Of a stretch of 64,000 nt of DNA, positions 18,567 through 55,420 are shown piece by piece (position 1 is the stretch's first letter; each line of letters opens with the position of its first letter). Origin of the DNA: an uncultured bacterium (lineage in GTDB: Bacteria > Patescibacteriota > Minisyncoccia > Phycocordibacterales > Phycocordibacteraceae); the NCBI GenBank assembly GCA_963759775.1, contig CAVXAH010000001.1, forward strand, positions 528,682-592,681, written 5' to 3'. The notes beneath the pieces were generated by a model. It saw nothing but the letters and a program-made list of their open reading frames with translations, did not search any database and was not told the DNA's origin. The translations under genes were made by a program, and so were the position numbers.

Positions 18567-18593
18567 AATTAACGAGGTCCGACCTCGTTAATT
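18567..18593. repeat. REP-like palindrome, copy A (3' flank of RAYT gene)
   Basis: aattaacgaggtc-c-gacctcgttaatt has perfect 13-nt arms. The central base is inverted relative to copies B and C. Confidence 0.8.
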
Positions 18594-18597
18594 TACG

Positions 18598-19230
18598 CTA
18601 GTCTTCAATTTCTTTTTGGAGCCACTCAAAGCCTTCAAAATCTTTTCTATATTCTCTTGGTCCACCAAAAAAATCAAGAAAGAAACTTTTATTTACGAAA
18701 GGATACATATTAGTTCCGAGTACGTAATCACGGTAACTACTCCACGGATAATCCTCCAGTTTTTCTCCGCGCGCGAGTGCATCAATCGGGTTTTTATGGA
18801 TGTAGTGGGGGATATACATAAACTGCGCATCCCGCTCAATCAATACCGCTTTAAACTTTCCTTGGAAAAGAGGTCCCACGCGTTCGTTCTTCTTGTTGAA
18901 ATACATGGTGTACCCGGTACATACTTTTTGCATAAATTTAGAAATCCCACCCTCTTCTATTTGACGTAACAGTAAATGGAAATGATTCGACATTAGAGCG
19001 AAGGCCAAAATTTCTACAAGCTCTTTTTCATAACGAGGTCGGACCTCGTTAATTTCCTTATTGAGCAGATAAGTAGTGTTGTTCGCCGCGTTGGACGTAT
19101 TAAATGTCTCAAGCGAATTGACGAAACGAGCATACTCTTTCGGTGTTTGGAATATAAAACGTTTTTCAACTCCACGATTGAAAACATGATAGATTTCTCC
19201 CGCAACGAGCGAAGGTTTCTGCATATACAC
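18598..19230 (-). CDS. REP-associated tyrosine transposase (RAYT, IS200/Y1-like)
   Basis: 210 aa. The motifs are YHVFNRG, LMSNHFHLLL (HUH) and YIHKNP (catalytic Tyr helix). Confidence 0.75.
   Translation of the reverse strand: MYMQKPSLVAGEIYHVFNRGVEKRFIFQTPKEYARFVNSLETFNTSNAANNTTYLLNKEINEVRPRYEKELVEILAFALMSNHFHLLLRQIEEGGISKFMQKVCTGYTMYFNKKNERVGPLFQGKFKAVLIERDAQFMYIPHYIHKNPIDALARGEKLEDYPWSSYRDYVLGTNMYPFVNKSFFLDFFGGPREYRKDFEGFEWLQKEIED
19030..19053. repeat. REP-like palindrome, copy B (inside the RAYT coding sequence)
   Basis: ataacgaggtc-g-gacctcgttaat. On the coding strand it encodes ..INEVRPRYE.. in frame. Confidence 0.75.
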
Positions 19231-19235
19231 ATTCT

Positions 19236-19258
19236 ATAACGAGGTCGGACCTCGATAA
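19236..19258. repeat. REP-like palindrome, copy C (5' flank of RAYT gene)
   Basis: ataacgaggtc-g-gacctcgataa, located 6 nt upstream of the RAYT start codon. Confidence 0.75.
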
Positions 19259-27234: not shown

Positions 27235-27307
27235 GCGCCTATAGCTCAATGGTTAGAGCACCAAGCTTATACCTTGGCGGTTCCACGTTCGAGTCGTGGT
27301 AGGCGCA
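27235..27307 (+). tRNA. tRNA-Ile (anticodon TAT)
   Basis: Perfect cloverleaf with acceptor GCGCCTA/TAGGCGC, anticodon stem CCAAG/CTTGG, loop C-T-TAT-A-C and T-arm CCACG-TTCGAGT-CGTGG. Confidence 0.85.
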
Positions 27308-27392
27308 CTTGCGGAGCAAGTGCGAGCCGTAGCGCGACGGCGCGAGGCGGGGTCGCAAGCGTTTTCAGCAGAAAACGACTGGTGACCACAGG
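27305..27392 (+). repeat. structured ~75-nt repeat, copy 1 (directly 3' of tRNA-Ile)
   Basis: H1 is GCACTTGC-gga-GCAAGTGC. The core is AGCGCGACGGCGCGAGGCGG (27331-27350). H3 is CGTTTTC-agca-GAAAACG (27360-27377). Confidence 0.7.
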
Positions 27393-32760: not shown

Positions 32761-32879
32761 ATCCCGTTAGAGATAGCGGGTACGGTATACGGGGTCGACT
32801 GTGTGCCGTTGTTATAAACTGTAATCACGATAGGAGTTCGGCGCAGATACTTGCGCTCGCACCCTATCTCTAACGGGAT
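32761..32879. repeat. 119-bp element bounded by perfect 16-bp inverted repeats
   Basis: atcccgttagagatag (32761-32776) pairs with ctatctctaacgggat (32864-32879). The right arm contains the A and T of the htpX ATG (32878). Confidence 0.8.
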
Positions 32880-44766: not shown

Positions 44767-44778
44767 GCTTGCAAAAGC

Positions 44779-44810
44779 AAAACCCGCGCCGGGAAGCCGG
44801 CGCGGGTTTT
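44779..44810 (+). terminator. intrinsic terminator
   Basis: aaaacccgcgccgg-gaag-ccggcgcgggtttt. Confidence 0.8.
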
Positions 44811-44829
44811 GTGTTAGTGTCAGGTCATT

Positions 44830-44901
44830 GCCGCTGTAGTTCAATGGATAGAACGGCTCACTCCTAACGAGCAAATGCAGGTTCGATTCCCGCCGGTGGC
44901 A
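44830..44901 (+). tRNA. tRNA-Arg (anticodon CCT), with imperfect stems
   Basis: Acceptor GCCGCTG/CGGTGGC (two G.U) and loop CT-CCT-AA. There is one A-C mismatch in the anticodon stem and one in the T-stem. Confidence 0.65.
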
Positions 44902-44943
44902 CAAAAATCAGATATAAGGCAAGCCCGCAGTCCCGTCCGTGGG

Positions 44944-45058
44944 GCACACTGCGAAGCAGTGTGCGGCCGGAGCGCGACGGCGCGAGGCGGAATCGCGCAC
45001 ATTTTCAACAGAAAATGATGCGTGACAGATGGTGGTTCAATTCCGCCCAGAGGTACCA
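44944..45058 (+). repeat. structured repeat, copy 2, ending in a tRNA-like T-arm/acceptor/CCA
   Basis: H1 is GCACACTGC-gaa-GCAGTGTGC. The core spans 44971-44990. H3 is CATTTTC-aaca-GAAAATG. GGTGG-TTCAATT-CCGCC-CAGAGGT-A-CCA follows at 45031-45058. Confidence 0.65.
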
Positions 45059-45101
45059 AACCAAAGCGATTCATTTCTTGATATACTGAACGTTATAAAT
45101 C

Positions 45102-47157: not shown

Positions 47158-47862
47158 TTAGCAGACATTTCTGGGTGCGCTGCGGTAGGTGAAGTACTTC
47201 AGTATCTCAAAAGCAGCGAAGAAGACGAGCGCGACCGTCCACACAAGGAAGAATGCAGAGAGTGCCTGTGAACCGCCATCTTTCATGATAAGCAGGTTGA
47301 ATGCCGTATGCAATACGACAGCAAGGATAAGTCCTCCTGCGGCGTATAGGATGCGATAGGTCGGGCGAAGGTGGTATGACCATGCGAAAGCAAAGCCGAT
47401 TGCTGATGAGGCAAGAACATGGAGAAGGGTAGAACCAAGGAACCGGAGGTGGTTGGTCACCAAGGTCTCGGCAAGTTGTCCGTTTTGGATCGTATGAACG
47501 AGGAAGAGCGCATTTTCTGCGGCGGCAAAGCCAAGAGCGACGGTGAGCATGTAAACCACATAGTCAGGAGATTCATCAACGGCTCGCCGCCAAAGGATGA
47601 AAGCGGCTGCAAAAAAATACTTCAATACTTCTTCAATTGTTGCCCAGGCGAAGATGAGAGGAACGCCTGAGGCAACGGCCTCGCGCGCGTACTGCTCGGG
47701 GGCTATAGCAAGAGGGACGGCTATCATACCGGCAAGAAAGGCGAGGGTAATCATTCCGCGCGGTTCCGGGCACCTCGCGTCCTCCTTCAAAAGGAAATAC
47801 AGCCAAATGAGGGCAGGTATAAGTCCCCCGACGAGCGCATATCCAATGACTTGAAACTCCAC
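47158..47862 (-). CDS. PrsW-family intramembrane metalloprotease
   Basis: EEVLKY and GFAAAEN motifs with 7-8 TMs. The start is GTG. Confidence 0.7.
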   Translation of the reverse strand: MEFQVIGYALVGGLIPALIWLYFLLKEDARCPEPRGMITLAFLAGMIAVPLAIAPEQYAREAVASGVPLIFAWATIEEVLKYFFAAAFILWRRAVDESPDYVVYMLTVALGFAAAENALFLVHTIQNGQLAETLVTNHLRFLGSTLLHVLASSAIGFAFAWSYHLRPTYRILYAAGGLILAVVLHTAFNLLIMKDGGSQALSAFFLVWTVALVFFAAFEILKYFTYRSAPRNVC

Positions 47863-47930
47863 TCTCTTATTCTAACGCACTTAGAGTATGTTCAAAAAAC
47901 CCTCTGGCGAAAGCATGCCTCCTCGGGTAC

Positions 47931-48012
47931 GGCATTTTTCCTGCTGAAAAAATGCCTGAAATGCTCGCGCCGTCGCGCTCGCAACCCCCTCCGATGCACG
48001 CCCCCGCCTTCG
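47931..48012 (-). repeat. structured repeat, copy 3 (diverged, directly 3' of valS)
   Basis: On the minus strand it reads ...GCGAGCGCGACGGCGCGAG...GGCATTTTTTC-agca-GGAAAAATGCC. Confidence 0.55.
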
Positions 48013-48016
48013 GGAT

Positions 48017-50185
48017 TTAGTTTACGGGCCACTTCGCGACCATGAGGAAGTCTGAGTTTTTTGTTGGCATGGATTGGTAGATTTCCTCCGTGACAAATGG
48101 CATGAAAGGGTGGAGCAGGCGGAGCGAGCCATCAAGCAGGTCCAGGAGGAGCGCTTGGCGCGACACTTTTGCGTTTAGGTCAGTGCCTACAAGAAGAGGC
48201 TTTGACTCTTCAATAATTTTGTCTGCGAGTTCATGCCACACGTAGTGATAAATCTTTTCGGCCGCAAGATAAATCCGGTACTCTTCAATGTCGGCGGTGA
48301 CATCAGCAGAGAGTGTATGAAATGCGGTTTTGAGTAGAACATCCGCTTCGGATAATGCCGCACCCGCGTCAGCGTCCTTGGCGTTATCGAGTACAAAGCG
48401 CGCAATATTCCAGATCTTATTTCGCGAAGTGCTTGTAGCCTTTTATTTTGTCTTCACTAATGCGCATGTCGGTTCCGGGTGCGTTTCCGACGACGAGCGC
48501 CATCCGTGCCGCGTCCGCACCAAATTTTACGGCCACATCAAGCGGGTCCATGTTGTTTCCGAGCGACTTAGACATTTTTCGGCCTTGAGCGTCTCGTACG
48601 AGGCCGTGAAGGTATACGGTTTTGAAAGGAATGTCCTTAAGCGCAAATTCCGTCATAAGAATCATACGAGCAATCCAGAAGAAGAGGATGTCATAACCGG
48701 TTTCAAGAAGGTCGGTCGGATGATAGGTCTCAATGTCTTTTGTTTTGTCGGGCCACCCGAGCGTTGAGAAAGTCCAAAGACCGGAAGAGAACCACGTATC
48801 AAGCGTGTCTTCGTCTTGTGTCCAACCTTCGCCCTTCGGAGCTTCGCCTACATTGATGTCGGTGCCGCGATACCACACAGGAATACGGTGGCCATACCAA
48901 ATTTGACGGCTGATGCACCAGTCGCGCAGGTTTTCTATCCAGTGGAAATACGTTTTCTCAAAGTGTTCTGGAACAATCTTGATTTTTCTTTCGCGCACGG
49001 GCTCAAGCATGAGCTCCTTAAGAGTTTTGCCTCGTCCCGGCACGGCTTGTTTACGGCGACAAACCACTGGAGTTTTGGAAGTGGCTCCACGATGCCTCCC
49101 GTGCGCTCTGCTGTCGCAACGTTTTGTTTGAGATCTTCTTCCTTCTCCAAAAGCCCCTCCGCACGAAGCCATTCAACTACAACCTCTTTCGCCGCAGTCG
49201 TTTTAATTCCCGCGAGGCGGCCAGGAACCGTCATTTTTGCGAACTCATTAATAACAATCACTTCTTTTGGAAGGTCGTGTCGCTCGGCAATTTCCCAGTC
49301 GGTCCGGCTGTGGGCAGGGGTAACGCCGACCGCACCGGTACCAAACGCAGGATCAACCTCCTTATCCGCAACCACCTTTATATGAATCGGTACGTCACAA
49401 AACACCGCGTCGTATTCTTTGCCGACAAACTTCTTATAGCGCGCATCGTCGGGGTGCACTGCGACCGCGACATCGCCCACCTTGGTTTCAGGGCGGGTGG
49501 TGGCGACAGGAATGGGGAAGTCTTTCGAATACTTAAAAGTGTAGAGCTTCGCCGGGCGTTCTTCGTAAACGATTTCATCGTCCGAAATAGTGGTTTGGCC
49601 CTTTGGGTCCCAGTTCACAATCCGATTGCCGCGGTAAATAAGTCCCGCATCGTACATTTGTTTGAAAATGGTACGAACAGCACCACTTCGCGTTTCATCA
49701 AGCGTAAATGCCTCTCGCGACCAGTCAAGCGAGGCGCCCATAGTTTTGAGCTGGGTCAGAATAGTGTCGTGGCTTTCTGAAGCGAATTTTTCAATGCGCT
49801 TCAAAAGCTCATCACGTCCCAAGTCATGCCGGCTCTTGTCCTCCTCTTTCTTTATTTGTTTTTCAACGACGGATTGCGTCGCGATGGCGGCGTGGTCAGT
49901 ACCAGGGATCCACAGTGTGCGGAAGCCACGCATGCGCTTGAAACGCACGAACACATCTTGGACCGCAAGCATAAGCGCATGTCCCATGTGAAGCCGCCCC
50001 GTGACGTTTGGGGGAGGCAAGACGATGGAGTATGTGGGAGCGTCTTTCTTAGCGATGCCCTCCGCAATACAGGTGTCGGGGTTGAAAAAACCACTCCTTT
50101 CCCATTCATGGTAGATGCGCGCTTCCGTCTCTTGTGGTTGATAAGGTTTTAGAAACTTCTCGGGCATTTGCAAGAAATATAGCAA
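48017..50185 (-). CDS. valS: valine--tRNA ligase, two frame breaks (near 49046 and 48417-48422)
   Basis: [14 protein letters not shown] (HIGH), [15 protein letters not shown] and KMSKSLGN motifs. The anticodon-binding part [11 protein letters not shown]... resumes in another frame after gcgAAAtaa. The total length is divisible by 3. Confidence 0.85.
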
Positions 50186-50615: not shown

Positions 50616-51840
50616 GCGAGCGACAGATTTCCGTTTGCTTTGAGAGAATCGGATGCGGCGAATTCTTTGCGAGAGGCGCGGTAGAAGCCCGCAAGTGCAA
50701 TCATGACCGCATTGTCGGTGGTGAGCGACGCATGGGGAATACGAAGCGAGACATTGGGATATTCCGTTTTCATCATTTCCGCAAACGTGCGGCGGATATG
50801 AGTGTTTGCGGAGACTCCGCCGCCAATGACTAGCGTCCCGGCATTCGTATCTTCAAGGGCGCGAGCGGTTTTCTTCCAAAGAACTTCAGTAACCGCATTT
50901 TCAAATTCGTGCGCAATATGCTTCTTCTCTTTTTCAGTTACATTTGGATCTCCATCCGGCGGTCGTTGAGGAGATACAGCACGGCGGTCTTGAGTCCCGC
51001 GAAAGAGAAATCACACGTTCCGGAATCAATCATGGGACGTGGAAGCGCATACGGATTTTTCTCGCTTACGGCTCGCGCTTCTTCGGCAAGTTTTGAAATC
51101 TGCGGGCCACCCGGGTACGGAAGGTTGAGCATGCGAGCCACCTTATCAAACGCCTCGCCGACGGCGTCGTCACGAGTTTGCCCGATAAGTTCGTAGGAGA
51201 GCCATTCTCTCATCAGCACCAGTTCAGTGTGACCACCAGAAATAAGGAGGGCAAGAACCGGCAGAGCAATATCTTTTATGTAAAGGGATTCTCCGCTCTT
51301 TTCATTTTTAAACTTTTCACTTTCGGTCCTCGTCCTTTCCGCTAATGCGGAAAGGATATGTCCCTCCATGTGGTTCACTGCCACTAAGGGTTTCTGCCAC
51401 AAAAGGGAGAGTGCGCGTGCGAAATTAATACCAACCCAAAGTGCCGGCTCAAGACCAGGTCCGGCCGTTACTGCGATTGCGTCTACTTCGGGAGTTTCGC
51501 ACTCTGATACGAATTCAAAAAATTGCTCCGTAAGACCGGGCTCGCGCGCCAAAATCTCCGCGATTTTGGCGCGCATTTCTGGCGAGATTGTCTGCAAACT
51601 CTCGTGGAGCAATTCTGCCTCTTCAAGTGCCGCCTCAAGAATAGGAACCAGATTTTTCGCATGTTCACGCTTTGCAAGAGCAGGGAAGACTCCACCGTAT
51701 TGCTGGTGTATTTCTATCTGAGACAAGAGCGCGTTTCCCAGTACGCGAAATCGTGCTTCCTTTTCATTTCCTTGTGCCTCAACCACAGCGATAGCAGTTT
51801 CGTCACAGGACGTCTCGATTGCCAAAATTTTCATAAGCAA
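50612..51840 (-). CDS. tsaD: tRNA N6-adenosine threonylcarbamoyltransferase TsaD, one frame break near 50956
   Basis: ILAIETSCDETA...GGHT...FSFAGLKTAV, then in the -1 frame ...IAHEFENAVTEVL...VIGGGVSAN...TDNAVMIA. Confidence 0.8.
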
Positions 51841-53641: not shown

Positions 53642-53907
53642 ACTAAACGGCCTCGTCGCAGGCCATCTGATAATCGTCGCTTCAGAGCCGCTCGAGCACC
53701 TTGCGAGTTTTTAAGACGGAATTCTCTGCTCTTTGCATCAGCCTGCGACATATATGCTTCGTAATATATCAGTTCGAGTGGTAACCGGGATTTTGTAGAA
53801 CGAGACGATTTTGAGGAGTGTTCGGCAAGACGACGACGTAAATCGCTACTGTATCCTGTATACAGCTTTCCGTCTTTTTTACTACGCAAGAGATATACGT
53901 AGTACAT
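53638..53907 (-). CDS. GIY-YIG nuclease family protein (second stand-alone copy)
   Basis: MYYVYLLRSKKDGKLYTGYSSDLRRRLAEH. Confidence 0.75.
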   Translation of the reverse strand: MYYVYLLRSKKDGKLYTGYSSDLRRRLAEHSSKSSRSTKSRLPLELIYYEAYMSQADAKSREFRLKNSQGARAALKRRLSDGLRRGRLV

Positions 53908-53940
53908 TGTCGTCTTGCAAGGCCGTTTTAGTGTGTCGGG

Positions 53941-55136: not shown

Positions 55137-55347
55137 AAGCCAGTTATACAACAAATCCAGAACTTGGCCAAACGCGGTGAGGGCTTGGCCAAGAACATTT
55201 CCAGCTCGCCGTCGCTCGTGGAAATTTCTCGGCCCTGCTCGCGCGACCTGTCGTGTTCGACAGGTGCACATGCTCGCTTTCAAGTCCCTCATCGCTGCTA
55301 TAAAATAATAGTCGCCGCACGCTTTCGCGTACGGCTTCTTTATTTTG

Positions 55348-55420
55348 TGCGCGGTGAGGGACTTGAACCCCCGACCCCATCCACGTCAAGGAAGTGCTCT
55401 ACCAACTGAGCTAACCGCGC
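55348..55420 (-). tRNA. tRNA-Val (anticodon GAC)
   Basis: GCGCGGTTAGCTCAGTTGGTAGAGC...TT-GAC-GT...GGGGGTTCAAGTCCCTCACCGCGCA. A TTGAAT-17-TATTCT promoter lies upstream on the minus strand. Confidence 0.85.

Follow-up and report, generated by a model that had tools for sequence, protein, structure and literature searches.

The Rickettsia palindromic elements (RPEs), RPE-1 to RPE-8, reportedly described by Ogata et al. in 2000, are said to be short, multi-copy, hairpin-forming, non-autonomous insertions in a reduced-genome lineage, lying between genes, next to or inside RNA genes, and in frame and free of stop codons in conserved protein genes, where they are apparently translated. A family of small folded elements with these same traits was found in a 64,000-nucleotide (nt) stretch of contig CAVXAH010000001.1 (the window), from an uncultured member of the Patescibacteria or Candidate Phyla Radiation (CPR); all coordinates are those of the whole window, position 1 being its first letter. 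The elements form a dispersed hairpin family (4 copies in the 64 kb of the window and 144 in 118 loci), are inserted in frame in open reading frames (ORFs), and show presence/absence polymorphism; as with the RPEs, they have no known mobilising enzyme. They constitute a phylum-wide family with a covarying single-strand fold, three architectures, one of them with exchanged hairpin tips, and in-frame residence in essential genes in both orientations. We put at a little over one half the probability that the family is a non-autonomous mobile element, the folded core of which would be a cis-signal for copying by a putative trans-acting CPR machinery. It is probably a functional analogue of the RPEs, with locus-unique arms and an RNA-like apex as its own features.

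By analogy, the family appears closest in kind to RPE-type in-frame palindromic elements, the two being compared by description, with no homology expected between CPR and Rickettsiales. RPE copies are similar over their full length, whereas here an apical core of about 65 nt is conserved and the stem arms are unique to each locus. The CPR core also covaries in the manner of an RNA and has invariant loops, a conserved G.U pair and swapped tips, one class is tightly linked to tRNA genes, and the hosts span a superphylum, not a single genus. RPEs are mentioned in a review of MITEs, the miniature inverted-repeat transposable elements (PMC10969869). MITEs, repetitive extragenic palindromes (REPs) and bacterial interspersed mosaic elements are likewise small dispersed hairpin repeats, polymorphic between relatives and often at gene ends, but in the present family there are no conserved terminal inverted repeats, the search revealed no parent insertion sequence (IS), target duplications follow no consistent pattern, conservation is internal and apical rather than terminal, and the REP-associated tyrosine transposase (RAYT) of the window has another REP. 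A MITE was rejected on the locus-unique arms and on the lack of a recurrent transposase among 763 ORFs within 2 kb of copies.

The folded core, covarying helices, invariant junction and loop nucleotides and permuted forms recall group I and II introns and the hammerhead and twister repeats, but the family is far smaller than group I and II introns and matches no Rfam intron or ribozyme. Integrative elements that target tRNA genes and leave attL/attR repeats are comparable in that two of our classes (A and C, below) lie right 3' of tRNA genes, several copies with 14-20 nt repeats; here, however, the element is about 120-200 nt, non-coding, includes an inverted tRNA segment and has no integrase nearby, and class B copies are without such repeats. 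Mitochondrial genes of Nematomorpha contain long near-perfect inverted repeats in frame, both arms of which are translated (PMC6649704). Near-perfect inverted repeats also lie in frame in protein genes here, but the Nematomorpha palindromes carry no conserved module at the apex and do not form a dispersed family of sequences. With the 4227 covariance models of Rfam 15, nothing was found on the four window copies at gathering threshold or at E≤5, nor on the copies in loci L004, L015, L022 and L114 at E≤1. Topic searches of the literature, and searches for the literal 15-mer, yielded no description of the family, which is apparently undescribed so far. By its defining features it is not an Rfam family, a MITE, a REP, an integron attC site, a group I intron or a known ribozyme.

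Copies in the window and fold of the core

The conserved core of about 65 nt consists of two hairpins, P2 (alpha) and P3 (beta). In P2 a covarying helix of 2-3 bp is followed by an internal loop, (C)GGA/GAG, and by a 4-bp helix capped with GACG; in P3 a lower helix and a bulged A are followed by a U-rich/A-rich helix with AGCA as its loop. In class A (57 of the 125 exact-core instances, with window copies 1 and 2), a variable hairpin, H1, and a purine linker (GAAAG, CAAG or CGAG) precede P2 and P3, giving a 4-way junction. In class B (68 instances, with window copy 3), P2 and P3 stand atop a near-perfect stem of 20-45 bp, P1, the sequence of which differs at each locus; the junction is 3-way and the outer helix brings both ends of the unit together. 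In class C, exposed by an nhmmer search, the tips are exchanged, so that the AGCA-loop hairpin is on P2 and the GA-helix-GACG-helix-GAG tip on P3. The window copies and their parts are as follows.

27235-27308, + strand: tRNA-Ile(TAT), found by ARAGORN and as Rfam tRNA (70.8 bits); its last nucleotides form the 5' strand of copy 1 H1
27304-27324, + strand: copy 1 (class A), hairpin H1, CGCACUUGC-GGA-GCAAGUGCG, variable across the family; from sequence and minimum free energy fold
27326-27348, + strand: copy 1, hairpin P2, in which a GCGC helix with GACG as its loop stands above a covarying lower helix of 2 bp
27351-27387, + strand: copy 1, hairpin P3, GGUCGC..UUUUC-AGCA-GAAAA..A (bulge, 27378)..GUGACC
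44830-44902, + strand: tRNA-Arg(CCT), upstream of copy 2; ARAGORN and Rfam
44910-45077, + strand: copy 2 (class A), entire inserted unit
44944-44964, 44966-44988 and about 44993-45026, + strand: copy 2, hairpins H1, P2 and P3
45031-45058, + strand: foreign tRNA-like 3' fragment within the copy 2 insertion, GGTGGTTCAATTCCGCCCAGAGGTACCA, comprising T-arm, acceptor 3' strand and ACCA
47881-48021, - strand: copy 3 (class B), entire inserted unit
about 47895-48018 and about 47961-47983, - strand: copy 3, long imperfect outer stem P1, and P2
47931-47957, - strand: copy 3, P3, GGCAUUUUUUC-AGCA-GGAAAAAUGCC
about 47892-47901, - strand: copy 3, T-run GGGTTTTTTG (TTTTTT after the outer stem)
55347-55420, - strand: tRNA-Val(GAC), upstream of the fourth copy; ARAGORN and Rfam
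55173-55346, - strand: fourth copy (class C, swapped tips), directly after tRNA-Val(GAC), with a GNRA-capped spacer hairpin
55247-55264, - strand: fourth copy, AACA-loop hairpin
55187-55234, - strand: fourth copy, long hairpin with tip GA-GC-GACG-GC-GAG
55279-55295, - strand: fourth copy, X', an inverted copy of the tRNA-Val T-loop-to-3' end
55173-55186, - strand: fourth copy, X'', a direct copy of the tRNA 3' part

All four copies are intergenic and none is in an ORF. A preliminary description of this DNA had recognised three of them, at 27305-27392 (+), 44944-45030 (+) and 47931-48012 (-), as a repeat of about 75 nt that always lies immediately 3' of a gene. These three are present as placed, each with one of the three exact window occurrences of the 16-mer AGCGCGACGGCGCGAG (chance expectation about 3e-5 in 64 kb on both strands, by our own arithmetic), and each folds into the hairpins that had been described (folding z-scores against shuffles of -5.3, -6.7 and -2.4 for copies 1, 2 and 3). 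Copy 1 does start within the 3' end of tRNA-Ile, the last nucleotides of which are used by H1, and copy 2 does follow tRNA-Arg(CCT), starting 42 nt 3' of it. Copy 3 begins at the valS stop (48017-48019), as had been noted, and lies between it and the native valS-prsW spacer kept at 47862-47880, but it is longer than had been thought, with an outer stem at about 47895-48018. The 75-nt repeat is only the core of units of roughly 125-215 nt (elements of the family as a whole being roughly 100-215 nt), and the fourth family member, at 55173-55346 (-), had been overlooked. A position 3' of a gene holds in the window, but the family also occurs in 5' untranslated regions (UTRs) and in frame in ORFs, in both orientations.

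The paired substitutions that had been noticed between copies 1 and 2 are real and extend to 48 family members. Across 48 class A cores and 23 proposed pairs, 95.9% of cells are paired, as against 78.3% in shuffles and 35-49% with slid partners, and 20 of the 23 pairs show double-sided changes. None of 500 shuffles equalled any covariation measure, and RNAalifold independently gave the same structure. A conserved G.U pair, also part of copy 1 P3, is present in 32 of the 48 core sequences. G.U exceeds A.C both in the core cells (69 versus 5, own tally) and among the single mismatches of the class B P1 stems (56 versus 7), which indicates that a single strand folds, either as RNA or as that strand of single-stranded DNA (ssDNA). 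Strand-specific folding of one or the other kind is thus supported by the substitution pattern. The P2 helix covaries among diverged copies, GCGC/GCGC giving way to GCAC/GUGC, GGGC/GCCC, AGCU/AGCU, GUGU/ACAC or GGCA/UGCC, and in P3 UUUUC/GAAAA is replaced by UUUUUU/AAAAAA, UUUCU/AGAAA or AUUGCU/AGCAAU, while the bulged A and the three loops (GACG, AGCA and GGA/GAG) do not change. The P2 internal loop of copy 1 is CGUA/GAG, the family consensus being CGGA/GAG. Sub-types of H1 with conserved loops on covarying stems were seen in some class A copies, namely GAAUACUUGGA and a YGGGAC type (L016, L026, L030, L050, L088, L089, L091 and L011, L023, L031, L063, L074, L087, L090, L096), which suggests a third recognised hairpin in some lineages.

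An ordinary identity, as a terminator variant, a REP or interspersed mosaic element served by the RAYT, or the att scar of a tRNA-integrating element, is largely refuted and hardly credible. The full hairpin of copy 3, downstream of valS, is followed by a T-run, and the earlier statement that no copy has one holds for copies 1 and 2 only; ordinary terminators exist in the window (for example, at 44778-44811). An intrinsic terminator was rejected, in agreement with the preliminary description, since copies 1 and 2 have no T-run and copy 3 carries the conserved apical 65-nt junction and is inserted relative to related genomes. The window does have a RAYT/IS200-like HUH transposase gene (18598-19230, - strand; HFHLLL motif; region 18570-19257), but it is flanked by a different palindrome, ACGAGGTCSGACCTCG, with 3 sites beside the gene and none in 124 loci. 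This REP, from which the family had rightly been distinguished, has its own palindrome with 9-bp arms, ACGAGGTC(S)GACCTCG, occurring only 3 times, at 18.57-19.26 kb, one copy being in the RAYT coding sequence (19033-19049). Direct repeats of 14-20 nt, from tRNA T-loop to 3' end, flank several class A and C copies as att sites might, but only about 120-200 nt of non-coding sequence lie between them and no integrase adjoins any copy or recurs nearby, and a tRNA-targeting integrative element was rejected. Nor do terminators, REPs or att scars have a covarying 65-nt core across a phylum, or reside in frame in ORFs. An integron attC site was likewise rejected, its organisation being the reverse of the variable base and conserved apex seen here, with no cassette arrays.

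Range of the family and insertion polymorphism

An exact-pattern scan (AGCGCGACGGCGCGAG-N8-25-TTTTCARCAGRAAA) of 185,579 GTDB species genomes, one genome per species, found at least 118 loci. Among the matches listed, all are metagenome-assembled genomes (MAGs) of Patescibacteria/CPR save one labelled Gammaproteobacteria, and the lineages include Paceibacterota (Nomura-, Kaiser-, Yonath-, Niyogi-, Adler-, Taylor- and Moraniibacteria), Saccharibacteria (Saccharimonadia), Levyibacteriota and Minisyncoccia. The exception, L118 (CAZLRU010000004.1, 'uncultured Gammaproteobacteria'), has an atypical core and is probably a mis-binned CPR contig. A phage origin was not indicated, the same pattern having 0 matches in 2.9 million viral contigs. 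The 118 pattern loci (numbered up to L118) and six loci of syntenic relatives of the window (L119-L124) make up 124 in all. An nhmmer search of fetched loci revealed about 35 further, diverged copies, and the copies at E<1e-3 in the 118 loci number 144. Element-bearing loci have about one additional copy per 32 kb and the window has one per 16 kb, as against none in the relatives (about 71 kb, non-redundant), a signature of lineage-specific proliferation.

The relatives represent five distinct sequences (L119 and L124 are identical), with TsaD 73-79% identical to that of the window. The neighbourhood TsaD-ValS-PrsW-HSP20-DUF2914-small ORF-tRNA-Arg-glutaredoxin is syntenic in all five, and no family member was found within 5.6-21 kb. 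The relatives show empty sites where the window has copies 2 and 3 and its class C copy. At the copy 3 site the relatives (L120, L121, L122, L123 and L119/L124) have an empty valS-prsW spacer of 9-44 nt, and in the window the native spacer GTGCGTTAGAATAAGAGAG is still there, following about 140 extra nt. L122 has 24 nt between tRNA-Arg and the ATG of the same small ORF; in the window about 170-190 nt are added at this point, including a T-arm/acceptor/ACCA fragment absent from L122. This fragment (45031-45058) does not match the adjacent tRNA-Arg and is from a different tRNA; the source may be another tRNA gene or a matured tRNA. CCA is not encoded by the five window tRNA genes whose 3' flanks were inspected (Ile, Arg, Val, Gly and Phe). 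At the class C site, tRNA-Val abuts the ATG of the next gene in L122 and L123, while the window has about 215 extra nt. Because these sites are empty in syntenic relatives, three of the four window copies, namely copies 2 and 3 and the class C copy, are shown by sequence comparison to be lineage-specific insertions. A possible 6-nt target duplication, GATATA, surrounds copy 2, and TAA/CTAA is a further candidate at copy 3.

The preliminary description had read the covariation as selection on a structure in paralogous copies of one genome. The structure itself, kept by compensation and strand-specific, was borne out; the covariation is not solely a matter of within-genome paralogues, since the insertions are absent from relatives and it therefore reflects evolution of a mobile family across the whole phylum. 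Paralogues within one MAG with partly diverged common arms do occur (L002/L004 and L067a/b), and L102, a Paceibacterota MAG, has an orthologue of copy 2 with compensatory changes in H1 and P3.

A site in TsaD shows the module at different stages of presence. Hairpin and module are both there in L036, L083, L094 and L098, and the TsaD of the window is empty. The corresponding segment in the 120 closest homologues of the window TsaD is 0-26 residues long, and the module peptide is in none of them. TsaD genes of the relatives (L119:3001-4239 and L120:1395-2660) have perfect in-frame hairpins of 22 bp and 17 bp with 3-4 nt loops and no module, exactly where other lineages have hairpin plus module, and the L119 valS-prsW spacer has a bare hairpin at the copy 3 site. 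Such bare hairpins reflect either module loss from stems or module entry into the loops of pre-existing hairpins; the two in TsaD, unlike the Nematomorpha palindromes, look like decay products or precursors. We also considered whether one arm is native coding sequence, as arithmetic on TsaD lengths had implied, but comparison of DnaE in L046/L076 with L072, together with the empty valS-prsW sites, indicates that both arms are extra. Copying of class B arms from a nearby target was rejected too, no convincing third arm copy being found in any locus. Arms matched beyond their own partner only in the orthologous pair L077/L085 and, at the 3-mismatch limit, for L084 to L080 and L118 to L020, both of which are taken to be chance.

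Copies within genes and at tRNA ends

Class A copies are never inside an ORF, whereas class B copies are found between genes, within ORFs and also in 5' UTRs, DnaE, a pilin and PilC being among the genes that have one upstream. Sense hosts are DnaE (2 lineages, one site), TsaD (4 lineages, one site, unrelated arms), UvrD/PcrA, phosphoglucomutase (PGM), MiaA, MPG glycosylase, KsgA (near the C-terminus) and a MutY/Nth-like gene, and antisense hosts are PheT (3 lineages, one site) and Dus. All 12 sense copies with at least 60 open codons on each side, and about 4 antisense copies, are in frame and stop-free; no copy with stops or a broken frame was identified within a gene, six ambiguous cases, open on both sides but not through, having been checked in part. 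Pfam domains run over or flank the inserts: positions 1-84 of the DnaE HHH_6 profile span residues 840-979, and positions 1-178 of the MPG profile are spread over 213 residues. The encoded peptide depends on the frame (SATARARGIFQQKN, GARRRENEPIFQQKN or ERDGARVRRLFSRK; antisense FSAEKFLVLAPSRS; further examples are SATARARGIFQQK and FSAEKFLVLAPSR), which indicates that what is conserved is the nucleotide sequence and not the peptide. Since they are in frame and stop-free, the inserts within ORFs are presumably translated, like those of Rickettsia. A search for further in-frame hosts with the tandem SATARARGIFQQKNIR peptide was uninformative, the word index giving only 9 candidates.

These copies bear on the possibility that the family is a new small catalytic RNA, either a self-cleaving ribozyme or a mini-intron whose outer helix joins its ends, spreading at the RNA level, which we regard as very unlikely. 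A junction of short helices of about 65 nt with few invariant unpaired nucleotides would suit such an RNA, as would the multi-copy dispersal with permuted and tip-swapped forms, known from hammerhead and twister, and the juxtaposition of both ends of each class B unit by P1. Group I introns are also unusually common in Patescibacteria, in which the same survey found no group II introns (PMC13011429). However, no ribozyme or intron model was matched even at E≤5, in-frame and stop-free copies in ORFs would be needless for a spliced element, and in an antisense copy the core could not fold in the mRNA; the presence of such copies in both orientations argues against splicing. Self-cleavage in the mRNAs of DnaE, TsaD and UvrD would be strongly deleterious, yet the cores are perfect there. 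A group I intron was rejected on the missing Intron_gpI match, the small unit (about 65-110 nt) and the in-frame and antisense ORF copies; a hammerhead-like core on a reading of the junctions by eye, in which no CUGANGA...GAA was seen; and the known self-cleaving ribozymes (hammerhead, twister, twister-sister, pistol, hatchet, hepatitis delta virus-like and hairpin) on the absence of any Rfam match at E≤5.

Linkage to tRNA genes divides the classes: of the 57 copies in class A, 24 are found no more than 200 nt downstream of a tRNA, on its strand in 24 of 24 cases, as against 0 of the 68 class B copies. In those 24 copies the folding strand has the same direction as the tRNA upstream. The sequence in many copies of classes A and C has the order X (the tRNA 3' end), spacer hairpin, X' (inverted X), module and X'', the last being a direct copy of X of 14-20 nt that starts in the T-loop and ends just beyond the discriminator base (L012, L015, L022, L037, L059, L082 and the class C copy of the window). 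The bracketing direct repeats are 20 nt in L015, L022, L037 and L059, 17 nt in L082 and 14 nt in the window class C copy; copy 1 has none, and copy 2 carries the foreign tRNA fragment instead. X' can pair with X, lengthening H1 into the tRNA, or with X'', closing the junction, and the X'-X'' helix mimics the stacked T and acceptor stems. The arrangement resembles both an attL/attR duplication and a guide/target or alternative-pairing device, the association with tRNA genes being a likeness to mobile RNAs and the target-complementary X' reminiscent of an internal guide sequence. Tandem duplications of class A units were observed at L065:5986-6146, where a 116-nt unit plus the tRNA-Leu 3' end is repeated head-to-tail, and at L050:2424-2728, and are consistent with unequal recombination between flanking direct repeats.

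Such features could be taken to mean that the element is a cis-acting RNA serving its host, the junction binding a CPR-specific protein or ligand and marking tRNA trailers and mRNA ends to be processed, stabilised or regulated; in a variant, X' pairing with the tRNA 3' end or with the decoy X'' would gate tRNA maturation, and mobility would account for the distribution only. The orientation of class A copies always matches that of the upstream tRNA, X, X' and X'' permit alternative pairings, the invariant loops and covarying helices extend across phylum-level lineages, one G.U pair is conserved, tip swapping is typical of compactly folded RNAs, and compensatory changes occur in orthologous copies (copy 2 and L102). 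We nevertheless consider a host-serving role unlikely. Five distinct close relatives lack copies in the same neighbourhood, and the element is thus dispensable; modules at the TsaD site decay to a bare hairpin or to nothing; and copies lie in ORFs, some of them antisense to PheT and Dus, where the folded RNA is no part of the mRNA and a strong hairpin could only hinder expression. The antisense PheT copies fold better on the element strand, by about 10 kcal/mol in two of three lineages and by 2.4 in the third, and the antisense Dus copy gives -72.6 kcal/mol on the element strand versus -85.6 on the opposite strand.

Proposed mobility and role of the core

Entire units with their arms are seen as insertions 3' of tRNAs, 3' of stop codons and in UTRs, and some persist within essential ORFs. 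If the family is a non-autonomous mobile element, insertions within ORFs would be tolerated only if in frame. The folded core would act in cis as a signal read by a putative trans-acting CPR machinery that copies the unit, and selection for copying competence would keep the loops invariant while letting the helices covary. Class A and C copies would be carried on tRNA transcripts. The outer helix often imitates the T-stem and acceptor 3' strand of a tRNA, which suggests that tRNA 3' ends are a preferred target or processing context, and since the tips can be swapped between helices, they probably touch each other or a common partner.

Several observations weigh against mobility of this kind. 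Clustering of the 763 ORFs within 2 kb of copies gave no recurrent transposase, reverse transcriptase or integrase, the recurrent families being housekeeping only (LepA, UvrD, TsaD and ValS), and the mobilising machinery is therefore entirely hypothetical. Conserved terminal inverted repeats and a consistent length of target-site duplication were not seen in the copies. Orthologous copies stay paired through compensatory changes (copy 2 and L102; L077/L085/L013; L046/L076), and several lineages have an undamaged module at orthologous sites within ORFs; such behaviour would not be expected of selfish copies that are dead, which hints at selection in situ or at gene conversion from arm to arm. 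The P1 stems, with 1183 Watson-Crick pairs, 56 G.U pairs and 29 mismatches, are so nearly perfect that they look more like the product of a DNA-level origin, whereas the core is RNA-like, so that the two signals point different ways. The seed pattern demanded an exact core, which skews the sample towards intact modules.

A further reading, prompted by the conserved, covarying junction with its exchangeable tips but in our view rather unlikely, is that the two-hairpin junction represents a new, Patescibacteria-specific class of compactly folded functional nucleic acid. It might be the core of a small ribozyme or ribonucleoprotein that copies itself into tRNA 3' ends and other transcripts, the target-complementary arm being the guide, or else a recruited RNA signal for the processing of tRNA and mRNA 3' ends; on this view the GACG and AGCA tips exchanged in class C would be the mark of a tertiary contact between them or of a protein that bridges them.

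Patescibacteria account for a large share of bacterial diversity, and their tiny genomes are thought to be poor in mobile DNA. If mobility is correct, the family would have shaped their genomes and proteins to a large and so far unrecognised extent (tRNA loci; the essential genes for DnaE, TsaD, UvrD and PheT), and would account for part of the odd insertions and of the gene-calling and annotation problems in CPR MAGs. Since the core evolves like a functional RNA, it is a concrete candidate for a new structured RNA or ssDNA recognition system; the family is also a possible CPR lineage marker, and the mimicry of tRNA ends makes a link between tRNA processing and mobility directly testable.

A few other features of the window were observed. 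The GC skew is too flat to relate element orientation to replication. tRNA-Ile (27235-27308, + strand) has the anticodon TAT (UAU), an uncommon bacterial solution for AUA decoding. The valS gene (48017-50185, - strand) is split into at least 3 overlapping frames (416, 251 and 74 aa), and TsaD (50938-51840, - strand) ends at 300 aa, its homologues being about 390 aa; both the breakage and the shortening are due either to assembly frameshift errors or to pseudogenisation. Two other long inverted repeats, at 32761-32879 (16 nt, 100%) and 53825-53918 (16 nt, 88%), enclose 87 and 62 unrelated nt, respectively, and may be hairpins capped by other modules.

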